64,000 nt of DNA from an uncultured Gemmatimonadaceae bacterium. GTDB lineage: Bacteria > Gemmatimonadota > Gemmatimonadetes > Gemmatimonadales > Gemmatimonadaceae. A program made the translations under genes and the position numbers. The DNA lies in contig CAWHAS010000002.1 in the NCBI GenBank assembly GCA_963827355.1, positions 63,493-127,492 on the forward strand, in the 5' to 3' direction. Shown here in pieces: positions 1,552 to 24,517 of this stretch (within the stretch, counting starts at the first letter, position 1; the number at the start of each line of letters is the position of its first letter). The notes below the pieces were generated by a model. It searched no databases and was not told the DNA's origin. It saw nothing but the letters and a program-made list of their open reading frames with translations.

Positions 1552-4233
1552 CTAGTCGTTCCTCAACGTGCTTGCCGGATCGACGCGCGCGGCGCGCCTC
1601 GCCGGCAGCCAGCACGCGATCAGCGCCACCAGCGCGAGAATCAACGGCACGCTGAACATCGTGGCAGGATCCAATGCGCCGACGTTGTACAACTGCGACT
1701 CCAGATATCGCCCCGCCGCCAGAGCGCCTGCGACGCCAACCACCACGGCGACGATCACGACCTCCAATCCCGACCGCAGCACCATCTGCACTGCCTGGCT
1801 TCCGCGCGCACCCAGCGCCATGCGGATCCCGACCTCGTGCGTGCGCTGCGCGACGCTGAACGACATCACACCGTACACGCCGATTACTCCAAGCACGAGT
1901 GCCAGCGCAGCGAAGGCGCCGATGAGTTTGACGGAGAGCTTCGTTGGCGCGAGGTCGCGCAGCACGAGTGCATTGATGGTACGCACCTTCCACACCGGCT
2001 GATCGGGATCGACAGACCAGATGGCTTCGCGCAGGGCCTTCCCCATTGGCTCCGGATCTCCGAGCGTGCGCATCGCGACACTCGCGAATATTCCGGAGCC
2101 CTGCATCTTGTCCAGATACAGCTGTGGCGAATCGCTCTCGGAGAGCGTCTGTTGCTTCACGCCGCCCACCACCCCAACCACACGCACCTCGAGGTCCGGC
2201 GGGCCGATCAGGCGCACGCTCTTTCCGATCGCCGATTCCCCCGGCCATTCCTTGCTCGCGAACGCCTTGTTCACGATCGCGACGCGCTCGCTGCCGGGCC
2301 GATCGTGCGAGTCGAAGTCGCGGCCGGCGAGCTGCGGAATTCGCATCGTGCGAAAGTAGCCATCACTCGCATTCGTGAATTGTGTAGTGGGCTCCGCACC
2401 GGCGGCGGGCTGCGCATGCCCCTCCGCCACGTAGCTAATGATGCCGAAATTCCCGCTCAGCGGAATCGCATCGATGAACGCCACAGACGCCACGCCAGGT
2501 ATCTCGCGCAGCCGCTCGAGCGCCGCCGACATGAAGAGCTGCACCTTCGCGCTGTCATCGTACTTCGCGGACGGCAGCCTGAATTCGGCCGTCAACACGT
2601 TGTCCGGGTCGAATCCGGTTTCGGTGTGTTGCAGCCGAACCAGCGAGCGCGTGAACAGCCCCGCGACCGCGAGCAACACGATGCAGAGTGACAGCTCCGC
2701 CACCACGAGCGCGTTTCGCGCGTTGAAGCGCCGCGCCGTCGTGCTCTCGGTGCGCGCGCGCAACGCATCCTGCAGGTTGACGCGCGAGCCGAAGAGCGCG
2801 GCCGGCGCGCCGAACATCAGTCCCGTCAACACGGCGATCGCAAAGGAGAACGCCAGCACCCATGCATCGACGTGCACGGGTGTTGCGGTCGCAATCGGCA
2901 GAATGCTGACGAGAGCCTTCACCGCCCAGATGCCGAGCAATACGCCAAGAACGCCGCCGGTAAGCGACAGCAACAGGCTCTCGACGATCACCTGAATGGC
3001 GAGACGCGCGCGATTCGCTCCGAGCGCCGCGCGAAGGGAGATCTCGCGCGCGCGCGTCGAGGCCCGAATCAACTGCAGGTTCGCGAGATTCACGCACACG
3101 ATGAGCAGCACGGCCACGACGGCGCCGAACAGCACGAGCAGCATGAAGCGCGACTTGCCGACCAGCTGCTCCCGCAGATCGATCACACTCACGCTCGGCC
3201 GCGCGCCACTCTGCGGATGCTCGCTCTGCAGTTGCGTTTCAATGGACGCGAGGTCTTTCTCCCCGTCGCGCGGCGCGAGCCCGGGCCTGAGCCGGCCGAC
3301 GGCCCACACCGACGCATCGGCCCGATCGAACCAGTCGCGAGTTGGTGCGGAGGTGACGGGCAACCACACTTCCGCATCGAAGGGATCGAGATAGTCCGCG
3401 GCAGTCACCCCAATCACTACATGCGGGCGACCGTTCAGAATCATCGTCTTGCCGAGGGCATCACGTCGCCCACCGAAACGCGACATCCATGCTGCGTATG
3501 ACAGCACGGCCACCTGTTGGCCGGCACCGAGCGCGGTTTCGTCCTCGCTGAACAGCCGGCCGGCAGCGGTCTTCGCGCCGAGGAGCCTCAGAGTGGACGC
3601 GGTGACAAAGCTTCCGATGACACGATCGGGCCGGTCGCTTCCCGTGAGGTTGACGCTGATCGTGCGCACCACTCCGATGTCGGAGAAGGTGTGATTGCGT
3701 TGACGCAGGTCCACGACATCCGGAAGCGACATGAGCAGCTGCTTCTGCGCGTCGGTCGTTCCCCAGATGCTGACGAGCTGCTCCGGATGCGCATACGGAA
3801 GTGGCCGCAGCAGCAGCGCGTTCACCAACGTGAAGATCGCGGTGTTCGCACCGATGCCCAACATGAGTGTGCCGAGTGCGACCGCGGTGAATGCGGGGCG
3901 CCGCATGAAGCCGCGGATCGCGAACCGAATGTCCCGCAGCAGGGCATCCACGCTGAAGGTCTTGAGCCGCGCGGTGAGTGATGGTTCAACGGACGCCACG
4001 CGAATGGGTCGAGGCGCGCCGTGACGCCACGATGAGAAGAGGCTCGCGAGCGCGTCGGCGCTCAACCGTGCCATCACGCGCACCTGACCGAATGGATCGT
4101 CGCGGTAGCGCGGATCGAGTCGCGCGTCGTCAATGAAGCGTGCAATGTCGTCGGCGTACTGGTCGCGAAGCTCGCGAGGATAGCAGTACGCGAGCAGGCG
4201 CGAGCGTTTCGTCGGACGAGGGTGATCGCTCAT
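1552..4233 (-). CDS. ABC-transporter permease, duplicated FtsX/MacB-type (ADOP-like) with N-terminal cytoplasmic prefix
   Basis: Intact 893-aa ORF with two MacB-like modules, each a TM helix, a large periplasmic domain and three TM helices (e.g. AFTAVALGTLMLGIGANTAIFTLVNALLLRPLPY and C-terminal IRMALGARGSQAVQMVLRSGLEVV). Its ATG overlaps the padR stop (ATGA at 4230-4233). No ATPase gene is adjacent. Confidence 0.85.
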   Translation of the reverse strand: MSDHPRPTKRSRLLAYCYPRELRDQYADDIARFIDDARLDPRYRDDPFGQVRVMARLSADALASLFSSWRHGAPRPIRVASVEPSLTARLKTFSVDALLRDIRFAIRGFMRRPAFTAVALGTLMLGIGANTAIFTLVNALLLRPLPYAHPEQLVSIWGTTDAQKQLLMSLPDVVDLRQRNHTFSDIGVVRTISVNLTGSDRPDRVIGSFVTASTLRLLGAKTAAGRLFSEDETALGAGQQVAVLSYAAWMSRFGGRRDALGKTMILNGRPHVVIGVTAADYLDPFDAEVWLPVTSAPTRDWFDRADASVWAVGRLRPGLAPRDGEKDLASIETQLQSEHPQSGARPSVSVIDLREQLVGKSRFMLLVLFGAVVAVLLIVCVNLANLQLIRASTRAREISLRAALGANRARLAIQVIVESLLLSLTGGVLGVLLGIWAVKALVSILPIATATPVHVDAWVLAFSFAIAVLTGLMFGAPAALFGSRVNLQDALRARTESTTARRFNARNALVVAELSLCIVLLAVAGLFTRSLVRLQHTETGFDPDNVLTAEFRLPSAKYDDSAKVQLFMSAALERLREIPGVASVAFIDAIPLSGNFGIISYVAEGHAQPAAGAEPTTQFTNASDGYFRTMRIPQLAGRDFDSHDRPGSERVAIVNKAFASKEWPGESAIGKSVRLIGPPDLEVRVVGVVGGVKQQTLSESDSPQLYLDKMQGSGIFASVAMRTLGDPEPMGKALREAIWSVDPDQPVWKVRTINALVLRDLAPTKLSVKLIGAFAALALVLGVIGVYGVMSFSVAQRTHEVGIRMALGARGSQAVQMVLRSGLEVVIVAVVVGVAGALAAGRYLESQLYNVGALDPATMFSVPLILALVALIACWLPARRAARVDPASTLRND

Positions 4234-4583
4234 GCCGGCGCCTGCAGCAGCTGCTTGCGGCGCGCAAGTGCGACGACTGCGTCCAGGCGGGCGAGCTCGC
4301 GCACGAGCACGCGCTTGCCGAACGGCGTGAGCCGATAGTAGCGACGACGCTCATCTCCGTCCTCGCGGCGCCGCGTCGCCACTTCTTCCACGAGCTCGGA
4401 GCTCGTCATGCGTAGGATGGACCCGTAGAGCGTGCCGGGCCCCATGCGCACCTGCCCTTCGCTCATCGCCTCGACCTCCTGCGCGATGGCGTAACCGTGT
4501 CGCTCGCCGTCGGCGAGTGCGAGCAGGATGTGCAGCACCGCGGGCGTGAGCGGGAGCAGGCTTTCGGGAGTTTTCTTCGTCAT
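4230..4583 (-). CDS. PadR-family transcriptional regulator
   Basis: Winged-helix PadR signature: LTPAVLHILLALADGERHGYAIAQEVEAMSEGQVRMGPGTLYGSILRM. I prefer the start at ATG 4583 (MTKKTPESLL). The ORF track's upstream start at 4625 is possible. Confidence 0.85.
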   Translation of the reverse strand: MTKKTPESLLPLTPAVLHILLALADGERHGYAIAQEVEAMSEGQVRMGPGTLYGSILRMTSSELVEEVATRRREDGDERRRYYRLTPFGKRVLVRELARLDAVVALARRKQLLQAPA

Positions 4584-13003: not shown

Positions 13004-13585
13004 TCAGCGCTGCGTCGCCACGGTCACCGCAGTGGACTTCGGGAACTTCGCGAGGATCGCGCGTGCCGCGTCGCCCAGCCGCTCGACGTTCTCGCTCGGA
13101 TCGTTCGTGAGCGTCGTGTGGCCCTCACCGCGCCAGAGGAGTTCCCGGTCGTTCGACCGCAGGACGTCCACGATCACCGTGCCTTCCGTGTACGTCGTGA
13201 CGAACCGCTGCCTCGGCCGACGCCACCGCGGGTAGAACGGATAGCCGTAGTCCCAAGTCGTGACATCGAGCCTCTCGCGCGCCGACGCGTAGAAGGCGAC
13301 CGCGAAGTCCCCCGCATTCGCGGACTCCTCGTAGCCACGTTCTGTCAACGCCTTCACGATCTGCTCGCGCAAGACTCGATTGGCGATCGAGTTGTCGATC
13401 ATCGGGTCGTCGGCCGTCGCGGCGCGGCGGCCCTGTCGCTGAGCGGGACCCGGCAGCATGCGGAAACTATGCAACCCGGACAAGCCCGCGTCCGGTGCGA
13501 CCATCGTGCGCACCTGGATGTGCGGGCCGCATCCGACCAGGAGCGCGACAGTGGTGAGTGTGAGCAGTTGAAATACCGAGCGCAT
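13004..13585 (-). CDS. Lipoprotein, DUF4136-like
   Basis: ATG 13585 is preceded by GGAGG. The signal peptide with lipobox is MRSVFQLLTLTTVALLVGC. The mature part resembles small DUF4136 lipoproteins (FAVAFYASARERLDVTTWDYGY..GTVIVDVLRSNDRELLWRGEG). The longer 299-aa ORF start is unlikely. Confidence 0.5.
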   Translation of the reverse strand: MRSVFQLLTLTTVALLVGCGPHIQVRTMVAPDAGLSGLHSFRMLPGPAQRQGRRAATADDPMIDNSIANRVLREQIVKALTERGYEESANAGDFAVAFYASARERLDVTTWDYGYPFYPRWRRPRQRFVTTYTEGTVIVDVLRSNDRELLWRGEGHTTLTNDPSENVERLGDAARAILAKFPKSTAVTVATQR

Positions 13586-13808
13586 TGGACCTCCTGCGAA
13601 TCGAGGGAACGCTTTCCAACGTGGGAACAGCCCAGTATCTGCCCCGGAATTGCGCCTGTCTGTCGGGCAAGCCGCGACGGTGAAGCACGACGTCGTCGCG
13701 TGGTGTGCCGACGGCTTGCGACGCAACGACATCGTCGGGGTGACCGACGGACGAGGTTCGCCGGCAATGAACCAGCTCTTGCACGGCTGTGAGGTACGCA
13801 TGACAAAG

Positions 13809-13840
13809 CGACTTACGGCGTCCGCGGACGCCGTAAGTCG
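13809..13840. repeat. Perfect 32-bp palindrome (possible bidirectional terminator hairpin)
   Basis: The sequence CGACTTACGGCGTCCGCGGACGCCGTAAGTCG is its own reverse complement, with a CCGCGG centre. It lies about 80 nt downstream of the cupin gene stop. It has no clear U-tract; on the minus strand it is followed by CTTTGTC. Confidence 0.6.
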
Positions 13841-13921
13841 TCGCGATCGGCCACGCCCCAGCGAATGCGTGCTACTCGTCGAATTCGCCTCGTGGCCGGT
13901 CACCTGCGAGTAGCCCGTCGA

Positions 13922-15031: not shown

Positions 15032-15076
15032 AAATAGCAGGGGCGGGACTCGAACCCGCGACCCCGGCATTATGAG
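15032..15076. repeat. att repeat, distal copy (orphan 3' half of tRNA-Met)
   Basis: AAATAGCAGGGGCGGGACTCGAACCCGCGACCCCGGCATTATGAG is identical to 20658..20702. The sequences diverge immediately outside the repeat (GAAGGTG versus TGCCGTG on the right, A versus C on the left). Confidence 0.9.
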
Positions 15077-15352
15077 GAAGGTGAGCCCCGGAGTATGGAG
15101 CGCTCTGTCCTCTGCCCGAAGCGCCACGGTGCGCCACCGCGCAATACGAAGCGCTCCCTATGATGGTGCCGCCGATAGTGCCGCCATCGCGATCGTCGCG
15201 CACGGATAGGCTAGCGGATTCCGGCCTTCTGACACCGTTTCGCCGCGCGCACACGAAGCACTGCGCGAAATAACGGGATGGACATAACGCTAGGCAATCT
15301 CTATTCGAGCCCTCGGCACTCCGCCACGCCCGTTGAGCTTAGCTGACATACC

Positions 15353-15877
15353 TTGCTGCAGGCGCCCCAGCGCCTTGTAGCGCGGAGTGTATCCGTGCCT
15401 GAAGAGATCTCCGGGGCCAGACTGAAAGAAGCCTGGAAGGTGCTGCTAGAGCGATACCAGTGGACCCACTACTGCACTCTCACCTACGACTCTACCGTGC
15501 CGGTTTATCGTTGCCGCCGAGACTTCACGAATACCTTTATTCGACGACTCGCCCGATTCGCTCAACAGCCTGTCCCGTGGTTCTTCGCAATTCAGGGCGC
15601 ACAGGGTTCGGATCGCCCCCACATTCACGCCCTGTTAGGCGGAACTCAGGCGCTTAGCGGAAAGCAGCTCGAAGCTACGTGGCGATTTGGCTACACACGT
15701 GTATTGCGCTACGACCCCACGCGCTCAGCCTGCGGCTATGTCTCGCGTGAGATCCTAGAATCGTCTGACGATCACGATCTTTCTACTCGCTTGCCCGCCT
15801 TGCTGAATCGGCCCGATCAGGGAGAACGGAGAGCCACTCAGGCTACACTGCTCAACGTTGCAACGGATTGCAATTGA
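15353..15877 (+). CDS. Small HUH-type rolling-circle replication initiator (Rep)
   Basis: The three HUH-superfamily motifs appear in order: motif 1 HYCTLTYD, motif 2 RPHIHALLGG (H-hydrophobic-H), motif 3 ACGYVSREI (catalytic Tyr candidate). It is 174 aa with no helicase domain. The start is uncertain: TTG 15353 or GTG 15395. Confidence 0.55.
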   Translation: MLQAPQRLVARSVSVPEEISGARLKEAWKVLLERYQWTHYCTLTYDSTVPVYRCRRDFTNTFIRRLARFAQQPVPWFFAIQGAQGSDRPHIHALLGGTQALSGKQLEATWRFGYTRVLRYDPTRSACGYVSREILESSDDHDLSTRLPALLNRPDQGERRATQATLLNVATDCN

Positions 15878-15916
15878 TTTCGTATTCCTGCGCATGGATA
15901 CGCTAATCGGCTCCAT

Positions 15917-16522
15917 ATGACCAAGCCGACCACCGGCCAGTATTTCGCTCTCGATATGGTTGAGATGTGCCGGCGAGGCGTCTTTGCGAGACCGGGATAC
16001 GGGCCCGCCCTTCTGATTCTCGCAGCGGGCTCCAGCTTTCAAATCCTCAACGTGCGAGTGGAGCCCTCCGCCCCGACCCTCACTGTGCGAGTTGTCACGG
16101 CACAAAGAACCTCCATCGCTCTGCCCTGCCAGGTAAGTAATCCTACGTTTGGGGGCGCCCGCTACTGGTTTACGTGCAGAGCGTGCCACAGACGTTGCAG
16201 GATGCTTTACTGGAGCCGGGCCAGCTTCATCCCCGAATGTAGACTCTGCAAGGGATTGGTCTATTCGACACAGAGAATGTCGCTGCCGAACCAATGGGAA
16301 CGTCGCGCCCGAAGGATAGAACAGAGACTTGGAGGGGAACGCGCGGACGGATTGGTCTATAAACCGAAGCGAATGCACTGGCGGACCTTCAATCGACTAA
16401 TGGATGAAGTCGTCGAGCTCAACGACGGCGCGACATCCTACAGGATTTCGCGAGATCGCGGCTTCCGTTCCTTATGCCGCTCATTGGACATAGAAACAGA
16501 GGTCGAGTCACGCTGTCGCTGA
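15917..16522 (+). CDS. Hypothetical protein with Cys4 zinc-ribbon (CRAC-x7-..-CRLC)
   Basis: A 201-aa ORF begins 40 nt after rep. It contains YWFTCRACHRRCRMLYWSRASFIPECRLCKGLVYSTQ, a zinc-ribbon-like pattern. No family was assigned. Confidence 0.45.
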   Translation: MTKPTTGQYFALDMVEMCRRGVFARPGYGPALLILAAGSSFQILNVRVEPSAPTLTVRVVTAQRTSIALPCQVSNPTFGGARYWFTCRACHRRCRMLYWSRASFIPECRLCKGLVYSTQRMSLPNQWERRARRIEQRLGGERADGLVYKPKRMHWRTFNRLMDEVVELNDGATSYRISRDRGFRSLCRSLDIETEVESRCR

Positions 16523-16853
16523 CTATCGTTCCGCTGGGGGGACCGCGCCCGAGTTGAGGGCTGGAGCAGTTACGCGCACTGAGCGCCATTACCCTCAGCG
16601 ACGCCGCTTTTCATGTAGAAGGGCATGAAACACCGCCGAGTACTCTGTCAAATCCCTTTCGGCGCGGGCGAGTTTCTCAGGCCTCGGAGGCGTACGCCCT
16701 ATAAGCTGACCCACGAAGCTTTTGTGCTCGTGATACAAGACGCGCACATGTTCGAGTATGAGTTCGAGATCCTCAGGTGATAGTCGAGCTGCCTCTCGCG
16801 CCAGTGCCTCGGCGCTTAGAGGAATGAGCGCTCGCAGCGATGACGCACTCGGC

Positions 16854-17399
16854 TTAGCGCGAATGATTGACCTTGAGCCAATCGTTCAATAATTGCTCAA
16901 CCATCGAGATAGTAGCCTCTTGCACTGCCTCATGAATGCGGGCGCCTCCAGCAATGCCAATTTTCCCCAAGGCACTCCAAGTGGTTGCGTCAACGGGCAC
17001 TTTCAACTCGCGAGGCAGGTAAGCCTCTTGCTGAACCGAAAGTTCTGAGCTGTAAATCCACTCGCCTGTTGGATTACCGTTGTCAGTCTCGCGGAGGAGG
17101 GTGATTCGAACGTACACGGTCGCATCGGAGCGGATCAAATCATCGGAAACCGGTATGCCCGCTTGCCGGAGCCTGACCTCGACGGTGGTCTTAATCTCAC
17201 CACTGTCGATGCCCGCGGATCTTGCCTCCTCCGGTAGTTGCTCGACAAGGACGGCGACGTTTCTAATGCCATGCAGGGAGTAGACATTCACAAGTACTCC
17301 ATCGTGGGGCTTATCCGTACCTTGCGCCATCGCGCTTTGAGCGCAAAAGGCAATTCCGAGCAACACTGATGCGACGACTAAATGACGGCTTATGACCAT
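16854..17399 (-). CDS. Secreted hypothetical protein (element cargo)
   Basis: The signal peptide is MVISRHLVVASVLLGIAFCAQSAMAQG. It lies in the low-GC segment, 59 nt downstream of the HEPN-like ORF on the same strand. Confidence 0.5.
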   Translation of the reverse strand: MVISRHLVVASVLLGIAFCAQSAMAQGTDKPHDGVLVNVYSLHGIRNVAVLVEQLPEEARSAGIDSGEIKTTVEVRLRQAGIPVSDDLIRSDATVYVRITLLRETDNGNPTGEWIYSSELSVQQEAYLPRELKVPVDATTWSALGKIGIAGGARIHEAVQEATISMVEQLLNDWLKVNHSR

Positions 17400-17458
17400 T
17401 TGGTTCCTAAGGTTGCAAAGTCGACAGTCATGCTTGACCGAGGTGAGGGAAACTCACA

Positions 17459-18247
17459 CTATCGCTTCCCCTGCTTTCGTTTGGATCCTCTGTGCCCCAA
17501 GTGACCTTCAGAGATATGGTAATCCATAATCATCATCATCGAAGCGGACGTCGTGCCTCGTAATCTCTCGTATTCGAATTCCCGGATGATACTCGGCAGC
17601 GTCGGAAACGCCTTTGACATGTGCACGCTGTGAAGTCGGGCGAACGCGTCGTTGGACATCTTCGAGACTTCCCCAAACACCCTAGTAAGCAGATCGGGGA
17701 CTGCAGCCAGAGGCATCTCCTTCGCCTGAGACCAAGACAGCCCGCTTCCCCACCGCATTCCATCGTGTTCTGCCCCTTGTGGTTCAATTATCGAAAGAAG
17801 ATTTCCTTCGAACTTGAAGGGGATTTTGACTTCGTGCAGAACGGTATTGCGCTGCTGATAGTACTCGTCGAGAGGAGCATGTAGACGCGGGTCTGACCAT
17901 AGGTCCGACAAAGAGTCAAAAGCATCGCAAACGCGTCCGATCTGGGCGTAAAAGGCGACTAGATCATTGATTGCGAACAGATACCTATCCGTGCGATCCA
18001 AAACGGTACTGGTGCCAATTTGCTCTGAATCGACTCTCTGCGATATCAATCGCGCGCACAGTAGCGCTTCAAGAGCGGTGTAGGTGTGCTGAGCCGTTCG
18101 TTCACGCTTCTGCTCCTTCGCTTTGCTGAGAATGGTCCCGAGCGACGAGACGAGAAGTTCCGTCATTTCCGATGAAACGGGACCACATGGTCGCGTATTC
18201 AGGAAGCTGCGCCAAGATGAAAGTGGCGTACGCTCGTTCAAGCTCAT
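17459..18247 (-). CDS. Hypothetical protein with Rx4H (HEPN-like) motif (element cargo)
   Basis: A 262-aa ORF in the low-GC segment. The central YYQQRNTVLHEV fits the HEPN RNase motif R-x4-H, as in RNxxxH of HepT/Abi-type HEPN proteins. The surroundings look helical. Met28 (MTELLVSS..) is an alternative start. Confidence 0.4.
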   Translation of the reverse strand: MSLNERTPLSSWRSFLNTRPCGPVSSEMTELLVSSLGTILSKAKEQKRERTAQHTYTALEALLCARLISQRVDSEQIGTSTVLDRTDRYLFAINDLVAFYAQIGRVCDAFDSLSDLWSDPRLHAPLDEYYQQRNTVLHEVKIPFKFEGNLLSIIEPQGAEHDGMRWGSGLSWSQAKEMPLAAVPDLLTRVFGEVSKMSNDAFARLHSVHMSKAFPTLPSIIREFEYERLRGTTSASMMMIMDYHISEGHLGHRGSKRKQGKR

Positions 18248-18361
18248 CCCCGTGTACTTCCAGACTTGGATTCATCTTCTCTTTGCCTCCGGTGCCGCGA
18301 ATGCAGCGGCAGCGCGCGCTAAGGAGAGTGATTGACCTTGAACAGCCCCGCTTTCGCCGCC

Positions 18362-19149
18362 CTACGCTTGCCGTCGTTTGACTCGCTTTCGCTTCGCCGG
18401 TTTTTCGACCACGAGCGCCTTCAGCTTGGCCACGCCGGCCTGAAGCTTTTCCCGATCCGCATCGGAATCTGGCTCGGGAGGTTCGAGGAGCACGAGTCCG
18501 GTCTTTGGATAGCGCGATTCATATTCTCGCCCAGATCGATTCCGGCAGGCGTTTGATGTGCATCAGATGCAGGGGAAACGGACTAAACCCCAGCGCGATG
18601 CTCTGAAAGCCATCGATCAGCACCTCTCTCAGGGCCTTCTTTCCGCTGCCCGCTAGCAGTCCTGCGAGCAGCCAAGTCCAAGCATCAATCTCGAGGGAGA
18701 CCGCCTTCTCTAGGGTCGCTCCATCCCCACCGCAATTTGTGCCGATACTTACCGCGCCAAGGTTGAAACTCGGGCAGCGATATCGCGCTCGTAAGCACGT
18801 GTGAAGGCAACTCAAGGACAGCGGTTTCCACGTGAATCGGCAATTCTAGTCGCCTCACCAGAGCCTTGTACCGAAGCCACGATGGTCCGCTGTCGGGAGG
18901 TGCCGGTGTCCCTTCCCGCACCGCTCGCCGCGGAGATGGGCCGCCTTCGCGCCCCCCGAGTAGCCAGTCAACCGAAACGGAATAAAAAGAGGCGATCTTC
19001 TGAATTGCGTCGGCACGCGGATTCGGCACCTTGCCCGAAGCGATCCGAGCTAGCGTGGGCTGAGATATCCCAATGTCCTTCGCGGCCAAGTTCACACTGC
19101 CGCCATGATACCGCTCCACGAGGGAGGCGGTGCGCTCAGCAAGTCTCAT
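18362..19149 (-). CDS. XRE/cI-type HTH regulator of the element; C-terminal part continues in two other frames
   Basis: The N-terminus SVNLAAKDIGISQPTLARIASGKVPNPRADAIQKIASFYSVSVDWLLGG is a classic HTH_3/cI-like domain (ORF 18685..19149). Protein-like sequence continues in ORF 18519..18815 (..GDGATLEKAVSLEIDAWTWLLAGLLAGSGKKALREVLIDGF..). It then continues in a third frame down to TAG 18364-18362 (EYESRYPKTGLVLLEPPEPDSDADREKLQAGVAKLKALVVEKPAKRKRVKRRQA). This is either one gene with two indels or three small genes. Confidence 0.5.
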
Positions 19150-19207
19150 TTAGCATAGCTTGACGTGAGTGACTAAGTGGATTATTCATTAGGTACCAGT
19201 TTGAATA

Positions 19208-19232
19208 TGCAGAATGTCGTGGCCACATTGCA
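19208..19232. repeat. Imperfect inverted repeat in the repressor/xis divergent intergenic region (candidate operator)
   Basis: TGCAGAATGT-N7-ACATTGCA, with a 2-nt bulge. It sits in the AT-rich 107-bp gap between the cI-like gene and xis. The gap also contains TTGACG (19171-19176) as a possible -35 element. Confidence 0.25.
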
Positions 19233-19256
19233 ACTATCGACCCCACGAGACAATCA

Positions 19257-19458
19257 ATGGACGAACTTCTCACGCAGAAGCAGGTTGCCGCTCTGATTAA
19301 AACTCAGCGTTTCGTTCGTCCGCCAATCCAATTGCCCCAGACTACCGCTTCCTGGCAATGGTAGGACGGGCAAGCCGCTAATTCGCTACGTGCGCTCGGA
19401 GGTAGTCGCTTGGGCCACGGCGACGCGAGATCGGTCACGCAGGCCGAGCGCGGCTTGA
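19257..19458 (+). CDS. xis: Excisionase/AlpA-type HTH DNA-binding protein, frame broken once
   Basis: MDELLTQKQVAAL.. then, after a shift at the A4 run near 19300, SVSFVRQSNCPRLPLPGNGRTGKPLIRYVRSEVVAWATATRDRSRRPSAA. The (K/R)PLIRY.RSEV.AW block is typical of excisionase-family HTH proteins. Its TGA (19456-19458) directly abuts the integrase ATG. Confidence 0.55.
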
Positions 19459-20584
19459 ATGAAACCCTTCAAGCGAGGGACCCGGCCGTCATTCTATATC
19501 CAAGCCCGGACCTCGAACGGCTCCCGCCGTCAGCTATGCACCGGAACCACGAGTCGCGCCTTGGCGACGAAGATCGAGGCGATGTGCGAGCAGCTCGCGG
19601 TAGCAGATCGCGCGTGGGACTTGCTCGACGCGGTATTTAATCACCGCCTTCCATTGGCGAGACTCTATGATCTGTGGATTGATAGCCGGTATGACGTCAT
19701 TGAGGTTCGCCGGAGATTGGAAGATCACGACGTCGAACGACGCGTCGAAGAGTGGTACCAAAGACATTGCAGAAACGTTAAAGCAGACAGTGCGGCGCAT
19801 GCCCTCGCTCATGTGCGCCGGTTCTTCCCTGAGGGTGTGCCCTGCCCCGCGTCTCGTGTCACACCCATGTGGCTAAGGTCAGAGGCTTTACGATTATACC
19901 GGCAAGCGAAACACGTTGCGAAAGGTGCATAGCTCCATATCTGTGTTTCTCGACTACTGCACGAGACCAGTAGGCATATTTGCCGAAAATCCTATGAACC
20001 TTGTTGACCGCCCCACCCTAGAGCGGTCTCCAATTCGATTCTACGATCTCGATACGGTTGAGAGGATTACTGGAGCCCAAGAGAGTGAGGCGAGGCGTGT
20101 GTTCTTCACACTCGCGTACGGCACGGCCATAGAGGTATCTACTGCCCTCCGACTTACCCGCGCCGACGTGATGACAGAGGCGCGAGAGATTCGCGCGGCT
20201 GGTACGAAGGCCTATTCGCGAGATCGAATGTGCCGCGTCGCAGGATGGGCATGGCCTGCGCTCGAAGCTTACTGCAAGCACATGCTACCGACTGCTCGTC
20301 TGTTCCCGATTGCATGGACGCGATGGACCGTGAGCGACTGGCACCGCCAGACTGTAATTCGGCTCGGGCTCGCGATCTATCCTCTGCACTGCGCGCGAGA
20401 TCATTGGGCTGTGCGGGCTCTCAGAGCGAGCGCTCCCGTCGCCGTTGTCCAGCAGCAGCTCGGGCATTCAAGTCCGATGCTAACGCTCACCAAGTACGGC
20501 CGTTTCATTCCCACCGCGGCCGATAGGAACGAATGGGAGCGCAGGGCAACGGAGCAGGATGAGCGAATCAGAGCGGCGAAATGA
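19459..20584 (+). CDS. int: Tyrosine recombinase / phage-type integrase, frame broken once
   Basis: ORFs 19459..19932 and 19916..20584 are collinear, with the shift near 19900-19930. The catalytic region reads AIEVSTALRLTRADV (Arg), LHCARDHWAVRAL (H-x-x-R) and LGHSSPMLTLTKYGRF (His..Tyr). The gene lies next to the target tRNA. Confidence 0.8.
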
Positions 20585-20657
20585 GCAGTCCTAGTGCCGC
20601 TGGTGGTGCCAGCCTAATCTCAACTAGAGAGGGAGTGATGCTAAGTCGTTGTGTTTC

Positions 20658-20702
20658 AAATAGCAGGGGCGGGACTCGAACCCGCGACCCCGGCATTATG
20701 AG
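20658..20702. repeat. att repeat, proximal copy (inside the intact tRNA-Met gene)
   Basis: Identical to 15032..15076. It covers the tRNA from the anticodon loop to the discriminator, plus 3 nt. Confidence 0.9.
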
Positions 20703-20734
20703 TGCCGTGCTCTAACCAGCTGAGCTACCCTGCC
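20661..20734 (-). tRNA. tRNA-Met (anticodon CAT), elongator type; Ile2 (lysidine) identity cannot be excluded
   Basis: Minus-strand sequence: GGCAGGGTAGCTCAGCTGGTTAGAGCACGGCACTCATAATGCCGGGGTCGCGGGTTCGAGTCCCGCCCCTGCTA. It folds as a cloverleaf with a 7-bp acceptor stem (G1-U72), a CTCATAA anticodon loop and a GCGGG/CCCGC T-stem. It lacks the initiator GGG/CCC anticodon stem. No CCA is encoded. Confidence 0.9.
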
Positions 20735-22175: not shown

Positions 22176-24517
22176 TCAGTACTTCCACTCGAGGCCGAAG
22201 GTGGCGCTCCGCCGCGGAAGGAGCAGAAGTCCGGGTGCACCGGCCGGCGCCGCGAGCATCCCGAGCGCGTTGCCGCGATCGAAGAGATTCGTGAGCCCGA
22301 CGCTCGTCGTGAGGCCGCTTTCGCGCCCGAACAGCCGCAGACGCCAGTCGTGTCTGACGCCGACGTCGAAGCGGACGTACGCCGGCAACCGCGCGGCATC
22401 CAAGGCGCCCACGATGCGCTGCGGTGAACCGGCGAGATCGCCCTGTCCGGCGGACGACGTATACGGCGTCCACTCGATTGGATCCGAATAGAGACTGGTC
22501 GGCGCACCGCCGTGCACGGCCACGGCCAGGCGCAACACCGTCGATGGCTCTACGCGCAGGCCCACGGCCGCCATCGCCGACTGCGCGGTTCCGTACGACG
22601 GCGTGTAGGAGAGTCCACCAGCTCTCTGCGTCACCGACGACAGCGAATATCCGATCTCGCCCGTCACCCGCTCTCCCTCGCGCGCCAGCAGCACGGACAG
22701 TCCGTTCGCGCGCGCGCTCCCGACATCGAACGCGGTCGTCGCGAATGGCTGCGCGGTAACGGGAGCCACCAGCACGAGTCCCGACACATCGCGCCAGTAC
22801 GCGGTGGCGCGCAGCGTGAGCGATTGCGAGAGACGAGCATCTGCCGTCGCGGTCAACTGATCGGCCTGCGCCACCGGCACCACGGCGCCGTTGAAGTTCG
22901 AGCCAGCGATGGCAGGGAGCGAAATGCCGGCGATGGCGTCGAACAACGATTCCTCGTTGCGCAACGACTGCACGTACTGGTGCAATCGTGCATAGCTCAG
23001 GCCGAACGACAGAGCGGAGCCGGGTGAGAATCGCGCCGAGAGCCGCGGCTCGAGACCCGTGCGCGCCGGCGCCACGAGCGCGTCGCGCACCCCCGCCGCG
23101 AACGCCCAGCGCTCGCCCACGCTCCACTGCGCCTCGCCAAACGCCGACAACAGCAGCGGCGTATTCGCGAGCGCGAGCGGTGCCGCCACGCCAGTCGCGG
23201 TGTTCGTGACGTCGTAGCGCACATCGTAGCGATCTGCGCTCACACCGCTCTGCAAGTGCGCACCGGCCCACATCCACGACGCGCTCGCGGCCGCCCCGAG
23301 ATCTTCGAGGCTGTTCCTGAGACGCGAGGTGCCAGCCCACGCAAAGTCGGCGTCGAACTGCGTGCGCCACGCGCGCAGCTCCCAGCGCGTTTCCCCGTCG
23401 GAGTGCCAGCGCAGCGCGTCCGTTCCGGTGTTCCAGACAAGCGCGTTCATCATCTGCTGCGGCGCCTGTGCCCCATCGAGATCGCTCTCCACTCGCGAAT
23501 CAACCGGTCGCCGGAAATTGGAGCATCCGCCTCCGCCGTTGCATCGAAGGACAGCCGGTCCTTGCTGTGAAACGCGAACGCCTCGAGCTCGCCTCCGCGC
23601 GTGGGCATCGTGAATCTCGCGAACAGGTCGCCGAACTCCGCGCCGCCAATGGAGCCCGAGGGCGAATCCGAGAGCGAGGCATCGAGACTGCGACGGAGCG
23701 CAACGAGGAAGGTGCCGTTGTGAATGGCGAGCGGCCCACTCACCTCCTCGCGCAACGAGCGCGCGCCGAACGCGCCGCGCGTCTCGATGCGCGTCGTATC
23801 CGCGGGCATGGTGGCGAGACCGATCACGCCGGCCGTCGCATCGCCCTGCGCGGCACTCGGCGCGCCGCGAGCGAGCGAGACGCTCGAGATCACGTCGGGG
23901 TTGAGCGCGGTGAGTGCGCCCGTGGAGTGGTAGGGGTTGAACACCGGCACGCCATCAATCGATATGCCGTTCTCCGATGCCCCGCCGCCGAACACGTGCA
24001 GCGATGTCGGCGCCTCGTCGCGCGCGCCCGCGAGCCCGCGCGACGCGAGGCTCTGCAGCGCATCGGCGCTCGCGAGCGCCGGATCGTCGTGAAGTTGGGC
24101 ACCAGACACGACCGTGGATTCGAATCCGCTTCGTTCGAGAAGCGTGGTCGGTCGCAGTGTGGCACTATCGCGATCGAACGCCGCACTGACTCGCAGCTCG
24201 CTGAGTCGCTCCGGGCGCGGCACGAGCACGATGTCGACGACGACGCGCGGCGACGTGTTGAGGAAGACGTCGAGCTCGCGCGGATCAAACCCGATGCGAC
24301 TCACTCGAAGGTGATAGGTGCCGGAGGGCAATCCCGGCAGCGCGTACCGCCCCGCCGAATCCGTGAGCACGCGTATCGCCGAGTCGGGGGCCGCGGCGCT
24401 CGTGATCTCGATCAGCGCCGCGACCACGGGAGCCGACGCGTCCGACGAACGCACGCTTCCCTCCAGCGACGCGACTCCAGTGGCATGGAGGAGGGCGAGG
24501 ACGAGGGCGAGGCTCAC
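22176..24517 (-). CDS. TonB-dependent-receptor-like outer-membrane protein with N-terminal carboxypeptidase-regulatory-like domain, frame broken once
   Basis: GTG start at 24517. The N-terminal domain reads SLEGSVRS..VLTDSAGRYALPGLPSGTYHLRVSRIGF. A plug-like segment reads LHVFGGGASENGISIDGVPVFNPYH. The remainder is a long beta-barrel with alternating pattern, ending in a terminal aromatic residue (..SATFGLEWKY). ORFs 23450..24517 and 22176..23492 join near 23460-23490. Confidence 0.7.

Follow-up and report, generated by a model that had tools for sequence, protein, structure and literature searches.

A mis-delimited gene of an unannotated, putatively HEPN-like protein family carried by a small tRNA-Met-integrating element of an uncultured Gemmatimonadaceae bacterium

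The window analysed here is a stretch of 64,000 nucleotides (nt) from the genome assembly of an uncultured Gemmatimonadaceae bacterium (GCA_963827355.1, contig CAWHAS010000002.1, positions 63,493 to 127,492). It contains a 5.6 kb island enclosed by two 45-nt direct repeats, 100% identical and spaced 5626 nt apart, the right copy of which forms the 3' part of a tRNA-Met gene (Table 1). A tyrosine integrase gene adjoins this tRNA gene, and the composition of the island is unlike that of the host: the open reading frames (ORFs) of 262 and 181 amino acids (aa) have a GC content of 52–54%, the element backbone 58–60% and host genes 65–69%, and the bin 17001-18000 is the GC minimum of the whole window (0.53, against 0.61–0.72 in host DNA). 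The island thus exhibits the tRNA 3'-end repeats, adjoining integrase and non-host composition of a tRNA-integrating mobile element. An earlier reading of the same DNA, made without database searches (the sequence-only reading), had placed three co-directional minus-strand ORFs of 262, 181 and 50 aa in the most AT-rich part of the element and regarded them as cargo of a small integrative element; the placement holds, and the gene behind the 262-aa ORF is indeed cargo of the element. The subject of this report is the first of the three, which was found to be the mis-delimited gene of an unannotated protein family with HEPN-like features.

As annotated, the 262-aa ORF extends over 17459-18247 on the minus strand. 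Apart from the ORF itself, only four relatives turned up among 5.8 billion proteins, with identities of 70, 53, 47 and 34%. All four start MNPxLxxHGDxxER...Y..W..IGNDG, and the initial ~43 residues of the window ORF could not be aligned to them. An N-terminus of this type is present in the window in another frame, in a 57-aa ORF at 18102-18275. When the family profile was compared with a six-frame translation of the window, profile positions 1-52 were located in the frame of the 57-aa ORF (18518-18105, E-value 9e-18) and positions 49-240 in that of the 262-aa ORF (18271-17462, E-value 3e-49). Because the profile splits over two frames, the real gene is the one at 17459-18275 on the minus strand, which encodes ~271 aa and carries one extra base at about 18119-18123. 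If one A of CAAAGC in CAGCAAAGCG is dropped, the translation (...DHSQQAKEQKRERTAQ...) runs to 271 aa and is collinear with that of P0002 (...DHLGQPKQEKRERTAQ...), the relative at 70% identity, and a GGAGG located 10 nt 5' of the ATG at 18275 fits this start. The annotation is to be corrected in that the deposited 262-aa protein begins in the wrong frame. The R-x4-H motif that the sequence-only reading had pointed out is present in the 262-aa ORF (YYQQRNTVLHEV; R codon 17849-17851, H codon 17834-17836), whereas the frameshift, and with it the true start, had been overlooked. A programmed frameshift was considered and rejected, as no slippery site could be recognised. Residue numbers below refer to the restored protein.

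The element was also found as a separate contig (L018; ENA ERZ25039534 contig_5209, 5586 bp), which is bounded by the attachment (att) repeats, corresponds to 15073-20658 of the window at 99.9% identity and carries the identical frameshift in the HEPN-like gene. An excised circular form could account for this contig, as could a presence/absence polymorphism within the community. Two indels distinguish the assemblies, and each falls within the integrase gene: an additional A is found at 19875 in the window, and an additional G at 19740 in L018, which lacks the A and reads through at that point (...TPMWLGQRLYDYTGKRNTLRKVHSS...). That the break in the integrase lies elsewhere in each assembly suggests assembly indel errors. 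A host gene for a TonB-dependent receptor, 4 kb away (22176-24517, minus strand), is likewise in two pieces, likely through a further frameshift: the ORF at 23450-24517 holds the CarboxypepD_reg and Plug parts and the one at 22176-23492 the beta-barrel, with an overlap of ~40 nt. On the strength of the integrase indels and the split receptor the assembly is indel-prone, so that a recurrent error at CAAAGC is plausible, and the frameshift of the HEPN-like gene may be either an assembly error or the mark of a real pseudogene. In the latter case a toxic, element-borne effector would have been inactivated by a 1-nt insertion, leaving nothing functional at 17459-18275. The presence of the same frameshift in both assemblies, which may or may not be independent, is consistent with such a pseudogene, as is the fact that the 262-aa product would lose the N-terminal 52 residues, which hold invariant residues of the family. 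With the indels described above on the other side, each integrase break being confined to one assembly, a true pseudogene is a serious alternative whose chances are put a little below even.

The family to which the restored protein belongs appears to be undescribed and unmodelled. A profile search of 1.84 billion representatives returned 289 proteins at E-values of at most 1e-3 and 213 at 1e-10 or below, counted as clusters at 50% identity; most are 245–290 aa long and match end to end. None of the 104 aligned family members matches any Pfam, NCBIfam or PADLOC model, and the 262-aa and 181-aa ORFs of the window gave no match in Pfam, PADLOC and PHROG scans. The only name found in any source was "hypothetical protein", and a cluster look-up was nameless as well. 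A search for related loci with a five-sequence alignment added one genome locus, in a metagenome-assembled genome of KSB1, and in metagenomes recovered only the contig already known.

Among the 104 aligned members, R142 is present in 103 and H147 in all. The residue after R142 is N in 62, H in 20, S in 15 and C in 5; D117 is found in 101 members and P152 in 96. G9, E13, Y27, W31, Y65 and H147 are invariant, and D10, G36, G39, R57, G113, D117, R142, P152 and W181 are conserved at 90% or more. The family motif can be written R-[NHSC]-x3-H-G-x-K-x-P, with the local consensus (F/Y)Y-x-x-R-N-x-V-L-H-G-x-K-x-P, and takes the form RNTVLH in the window copy. Judged from this alignment, the R/H pair noted in the sequence-only reading is the most conserved feature of what is a real family.

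A polar residue directly after the motif arginine is typical of HEPN proteins, and the family combines such a residue (N, H, S or C) with a near-invariant motif of the HEPN type, Rx4-6H. The predicted structure was also compared with the HEPN fold. With only five sequences AlphaFold2 gave an unusable model (predicted local distance difference test score, pLDDT, of 45), and with the 104-sequence alignment a confident one (pLDDT 92.4, predicted template modelling score 0.88), the elements of which are listed in Table 1. HEPN domains have been described as four-helix up-down bundles, with the motif at the C-terminus of a helix and, near it, a conserved acidic residue in helix 2 (Anantharaman et al. 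2013, PMC3710099). The helix layout predicted for the family fits this description: in the model the core is all-alpha with long helices, the motif closes a helix and is followed by a loop, and an acidic residue, D117, lies in the preceding long helix. It departs from the description in the place of a large insert, which comes after the motif helix and not between helices 2 and 3. The family further differs from the HEPN superfamily by a C-terminal SG tail and by a strongly conserved segment added at the N-terminus (HGDxLE...Y..W..IGNDG). Structural support for the HEPN assignment is confined to this layout of secondary structure, and packing of the helices into a bundle and closeness of D117 to the motif are conjectural.

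In sequence searches of the PDB the sole HEPN-relevant match was Thr1ApeA (9HXL), in which LYRQRNIVLHG is aligned with fYqqRnnvLHg of the family at sub-significant E-values (0.9 with the full profile, 0.088 with a core profile). Residues R521 of Ec1 and R502 of Ec2 ApeA are catalytic HEPN residues (bioRxiv 10.64898/2026.01.26.701840), and they fall within YKVRNKITH and YRTRNLIVH. The family was set against ten ApeA HEPN domains, Ec1, Ec2 and Ec3 from E. coli genomes and seven homologues from plasmids; hhalign brought the R, N and H into register every time, with P values of 0.001–0.055. In an empirical null made up of 134 ORFs of at least 200 aa from all loci, eleven true family members ranked first and ApeA domains came next (P 0.0011, 0.0042 and 0.0046), the median P being 0.39. 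At the level of sequence this is a consistent similarity of motifs, short of demonstrated homology. The catalytic motif is nearly identical, (L/I)Y(R/K)xRNx(I/V)xH in ApeA and (F/Y)YqqRNxVLHG in the family; on visual inspection, W-x-A-L-E-S-L in the first HEPN helix of ApeA also resembles Y-T-x-L-E-S of the family, and both proteins may occur as single-gene cargo of prophages or other mobile elements. In contrast, ApeA proteins are 546–601 aa long and possess N-terminal and Mid domains, which the family proteins, mostly of 245–290 aa, lack, and the family gave no ApeA-named match in PADLOC or in NCBIfam, which PGAP uses to name ApeA. Separately, in a P2-like prophage hotspot of E. coli EC416 (NZ_AP027404.1; L023 2501-4254), a gene similar to Ec3ApeA is annotated as two hypothetical coding sequences (2501-3088 and 3136-4254) and is apparently a disrupted ApeA.

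The sequence-only reading had likened the motif to that of HepT, and the family protein is like HepT of the HepT-MntA systems in being small and largely helical and in having a motif of the RNxxxH type. It is, however, twice the size of HepT and has no DUF86/HepT profile match, and none of the neighbouring genes, whether in the window or at the related loci that were examined, encodes an MNT nucleotidyltransferase domain. The results do not support placing the family in ApeA, HepT or another described HEPN family. HEPN toxins are common in toxin-antitoxin pairs (PMC3710099), and a type II pair could be envisaged here in which a HEPN-like toxin is neutralised by the 43-aa ORF, the 50-aa ORF or the Xre-type helix-turn-helix (HTH) protein, the gene of which lies upstream on the same strand. 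Such a pair is improbable: neither an MNT nucleotidyltransferase nor a known antitoxin family adjoins the gene, here or in the homologous loci examined, the small neighbours are not conserved across loci, and the HTH gene lies 410 nt away and is divergent from the integrase gene, as expected of an element repressor.

The genomic contexts of family members were read at a handful of loci, which do not amount to a statistical survey. The gene order at L009/L010 (member P0156) is DrmMI, a 678-aa LmuB-like ATPase (E-value 6e-7), the family gene, a HerA-like ATPase, DrmA, DrmB and a PLD protein; L014 (P0144) and L019 (P0160) exhibit the same ATPase (63% identical), the family gene and DrmA. These DISARM-embedded cassettes, in which an LmuB-like ABC/SMC ATPase precedes the family gene, occupy 4671-9576 of L009, 1-2176 of L014 and 2-929 of L019. 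At L011/L012 (P0157), a gene for a 307-aa TIR-domain protein follows 48 nt downstream of the family member (L011 8001-9742), and an AbiJ_NTD3-domain gene, DEAD- and SNF2-type helicases and a type IV secretion system coupling protein are encoded nearby on the same island. The P0161 gene (L013) lies between a tyrosine integrase gene and an HTH_17 excisionase-like gene, beside a gene with a weak Phage_portal_2 domain. Elsewhere the family gene follows a DUF4238 gene (L001, P0004), faces a convergent T5orf172/MUG113-domain gene (L002, P0003) or stands isolated between pheA and unknown ORFs (L016, the KSB1 genome). Because relatives lie in DISARM operons, by a TIR gene and by integrases, these contexts support a defence role for the family, and occurrence in defence islands, restriction-modification-type operons and mobile elements is a further likeness to the HEPN superfamily.

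Genes embedded co-directionally in DISARM, BREX and restriction-modification systems are usually defence genes, and cassettes of an ABC ATPase plus an effector are the commonest (Payne et al. 2024, 10.1101/2024.01.29.577857). The logic of an ATPase plus a nuclease seen in PrrC/RloC, where an ABC ATPase is fused to a HEPN anticodon nuclease in restriction-modification loci, and in the cassettes HEC-01 to HEC-03 (10.1101/2024.01.29.577857) resembles that of the three DISARM loci. By this analogy one branch of the family may work with an ABC/SMC ATPase, and the DISARM-embedded cassette of ATPase and family gene may be an undescribed defence module. The two differ in that ATPase and putative nuclease are separate genes in the family loci, where the similarity to LmuB is weak (E-value 6e-7), and the window copy has no ATPase partner: P0156, P0144 and P0160, which are distant members, have drmA/B/C/MI genes or an LmuB-like ATPase as neighbours, and the window element has none of these. 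The possibility that the family is LmuC was rejected, as there was no match to PADLOC LmuC. In its most extended form the proposal would describe a self-contained, new HEPN-like anti-phage effector which in one branch serves as the nuclease arm of a two-gene cassette with an LmuB-like ABC/SMC ATPase in DISARM, either as a Lamassu-type effector of a new sort or as a counterpart of PrrC/RloC split over two genes; this is put forward tentatively, as a possibility well short of even.

Several results weigh against a HEPN-like effector. When the confident model was searched with Foldseek, neither the PDB nor BFVD contained a match below an E-value of 0.1, so that the HEPN fold suggested by the sequence-only reading was not recovered; the motif does lie at a helix end in this model. 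The only toxin-antitoxin entry among the top 50 Foldseek matches was 7bxo_F ("toxin-antitoxin with AMP-PNP"), at rank 39 with a non-significant E-value of 4.7, and no HEPN-clan Pfam match appeared even when the family consensus and fragments were searched at E-values up to 10; existing HEPN models of Pfam, NCBIfam and PADLOC thus fail to detect the family. The hhalign alignments with ApeA span only 19–63 columns in nine of the ten comparisons, at probabilities of 1–20%, and ApeA had been chosen post hoc, following a database match with an E-value of about 1. Conservation in the family extends to many residues beyond the motif, as is unusual among HEPN proteins, and the family was absent from phage, plasmid and IMG/VR collections with the queries used (consensus tblastn against plasmids and phages, and an IMG/VR scan). 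The frameshift adds that the gene may be non-functional in the window.

The absence of a structural or HEPN-clan match would also suit a family that is not a HEPN RNase, and whose members are instead helical adaptors, sensors or regulatory subunits of larger defence machines such as DISARM or the LmuB-like ATPases, with the R, the H and the remaining invariant residues binding a ligand or partner. The conserved residues outside the motif (G9, D10, E13, Y27, W31, G36, G39, R57, Y65, G113 and W181) and the frequent position of the family gene beside large ATPases or helicases point the same way. Such a role is considered rather unlikely, as the motif with the polar residue behind its R, its place at a helix end and the acidic residue of the preceding helix jointly match the published HEPN description, the motif falls into register with the one proven to be catalytic in ApeA, and many family members are solitary, lacking a large partner. 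That the family is a HEPN-like RNase is accordingly rated somewhat better than an even bet. The reading preferred here, that the 262-aa ORF is the mis-delimited form of a ~271-aa HEPN-like family gene carried as cargo of the tRNA-Met element and encoding a putative RNase defence effector, is given a probability of roughly 0.6.

Under the preferred reading, the family protein would be a single-domain, mostly alpha-helical protein of ~250 aa, with a core of two long helices, a third, short motif helix, a beta-hairpin insert and a fourth long helix. By analogy with other HEPN proteins it may form a homodimer in which R142 and H147 of the two subunits make up a metal-independent RNase site, with D117 possibly assisting catalysis. 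Upon infection, cleavage of host or phage RNA would halt growth of the infected cell or degrade phage transcripts, and the protein would act as an abortive-infection or defence effector to the benefit of its element. The Trp-rich insert, together with the conserved segment at the N-terminus, may form a regulatory or sensing surface that keeps the enzyme inactive or detects a trigger, and in the DISARM branch the LmuB-like ATPase may be the sensor. HEPN-type effectors on mobile elements are a well-known kind; the family itself is apparently new. If it is a family of HEPN RNases, it would add to the defence repertoire an uncatalogued class of effectors, with about 290 clusters at 50% identity, nearly all metagenomic and none named, and it would account for a recurrent unknown gene in DISARM operons beside the LmuB-like ATPase. 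The DISARM-embedded cassette is the most interesting lead.

The findings point to what is likely a new HEPN-like defence family, but not to a new system of a HEPN protein with an exported partner, as had been proposed from the arrangement of the three ORFs. In that proposal the HEPN-like effector, the 181-aa exported protein and a small helical protein form one defence operon. The ORFs are indeed co-directional with gaps of only 59 and 106 nt, the 262-aa and 181-aa ORFs are both low in GC, and a lipoprotein-type signal was found on the next co-directional ORF in two of the three close homologues for which downstream DNA was read (L001 and L005). Nothing shows a single operon, the promoter and terminator scans having been uninformative. 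The 181-aa ORF has a plausible Sec signal by eye (MVISRHLVVASVLLGIAFCAQSAMA, followed by QG), in keeping with the signal peptide originally assigned to it, a plausible ribosome-binding site (AGGA, 5 nt 5' of the ATG) and GC values at the three codon positions (0.61/0.41/0.59) that match the pattern of the neighbouring gene. Its product has no homologue but itself among 5.8 billion sequences. The lipoprotein-signal ORFs co-directionally downstream of the close homologues, at L005/L006 (...WLLSGC) and L001 (...AIAATGC), are similar neither to the 181-aa protein nor to one another; by eye, the former resembles a CarboxypepD_reg-type lipoprotein and the latter a DUF4136-type one, the L001 ORF having no Pfam match, and both have the look of common lipoproteins of the host. 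Just outside the window element (13004-13903, minus strand) lies a further host lipoprotein gene, of the DUF4136 type, and the L001 ORF downstream of P0004 (2906-3691) is by eye of the same kind, which illustrates how easily chance gives rise to exported neighbours in such genomes. At other loci the downstream or neighbouring genes are different again: T5orf172/MUG113-domain, TIR, DrmA, HerA, excisionase-like and unknown cytoplasmic ORFs.

The third ORF fares worse. The proposed frame of 16595-~16858 has no ATG, GTG or TTG before 16747, no ribosome-binding site was seen 5' of the GTG at 16747 that opens the minimal 50-aa ORF, and the ORF was not called in L018. It had no tblastn match in plasmids or phages and no family match bar a stray, weak one in PADLOC, and it is probably non-coding; a short gene is possible given the indel-prone assembly. 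Since the neighbours fail to co-occur outside this locus, the three-gene architecture is largely refuted, and an operon of this kind is very improbable. The 181-aa secreted protein is an unrelated orphan cargo, and that a HEPN-like protein stands next to an exported one here is a coincidence of this single locus, not worth pursuing as a system.

Table 1. Features of the tRNA-Met element and predicted structural elements of the restored HEPN-like protein
Feature	Position	Strand	Evidence
attL, 45-nt direct repeat copying the tRNA-Met 3' part	15032-15076		repeat pair 100% identical
Rolling-circle Rep-like element protein, 174 aa	15353-15877	+	Pfam REP_ORF2-G2P, E-value 3.4e-7, above gathering score
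Cys-rich element protein, 201 aa	15917-16522	+	ORF; no family match; in both element copies
Doubtful 50-aa GTG ORF	16595-16747	-	not called in L018; no tblastn or Rfam match
Orphan 181-aa protein, N-terminal Sec-type signal peptide	16854-17399	-	self-match only; coding-like codon-position GC
HEPN-like gene, part 3' of the frameshift (KEQKRERT... to stop): helices, beta-hairpin insert, C-terminal tail	17459-18118	-	family profile positions 49-240, E-value 3e-49
R-N-T-V-L-H motif codons	17834-17851	-	R142 to H147 of the restored protein; R133 to H138 of the annotated 262-aa ORF
Site of the frameshift, with a surplus base in CAGCAAAGCGAAGG	18119-18123	-	family profile; same sequence in L018
HEPN-like gene, true N-terminal 52 codons (MNPSLEVHGDELERAYATFILAQLPEYATMWSRFIGNDG...)	18120-18275	-	family profile positions 1-52, E-value 9e-18; homologues begin alike
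43-aa GTG ORF between HTH gene and HEPN-like gene	18362-18493	-	ORF; no family match
Xre/cI-type HTH element regulator, 154 aa	18685-19149	-	Pfam HTH_3, E-value 8e-8; PHROG transcriptional repressor families
Tyrosine integrase, split here by one extra A at 19875	19459-20584	+	Phage_integrase domain in 19916-20584
attR, 45-nt direct repeat inside tRNA-Met	20658-20702		repeat pair
tRNA-Met (CAT), integration target	20661-20734	-	ARAGORN; Rfam tRNA, 70.8 bits
Small helices	residues 5-35		AlphaFold2 model
Long helix	residues 51-86		AlphaFold2 model
Long helix containing GRIRD with D117	residues 94-126		AlphaFold2 model
Shorter helix with R142...H147 at its C-terminal end	residues 133-147		AlphaFold2 model
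Beta hairpin	residues 153-163		AlphaFold2 model
Short elements	residues 181-191		AlphaFold2 model
Long helix	residues 192-222		AlphaFold2 model
Helix	residues 226-237		AlphaFold2 model

The remainder of the element is listed in Table 1. It has in common with other small tRNA-integrating elements the tRNA-Met 3'-end repeats, the integrase gene by the tRNA, a divergent HTH regulator and a Rep of the REP_ORF2-G2P type, and differs from them in its very small size and in a cargo that consists of one member of an unannotated family and one orphan. An inovirus-like prophage was considered and rejected, as an ORF for a morphogenesis ATPase is absent. The Cys-rich 201-aa protein, with a CxxC...CxxC-like pattern, is paired with the Rep (15353-16522) and has no homologues beyond this element; an IMG/VR scan recovered no close relatives, and the element backbone looks rare. 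In an Rfam scan the tRNA-Met was the sole match. The genes for the HTH regulator and the HEPN-like protein are separated by a gap of 410 nt, in which (region 18332-18556) a 43-aa ORF is found on the minus strand and a 74-aa ORF on the plus strand, neither with a family match. The 74-aa ORF was chosen by the gene caller in L018 in place of the 43-aa ORF, the latter of which has a very basic C-terminus (KPAKRKRVKRRQA).

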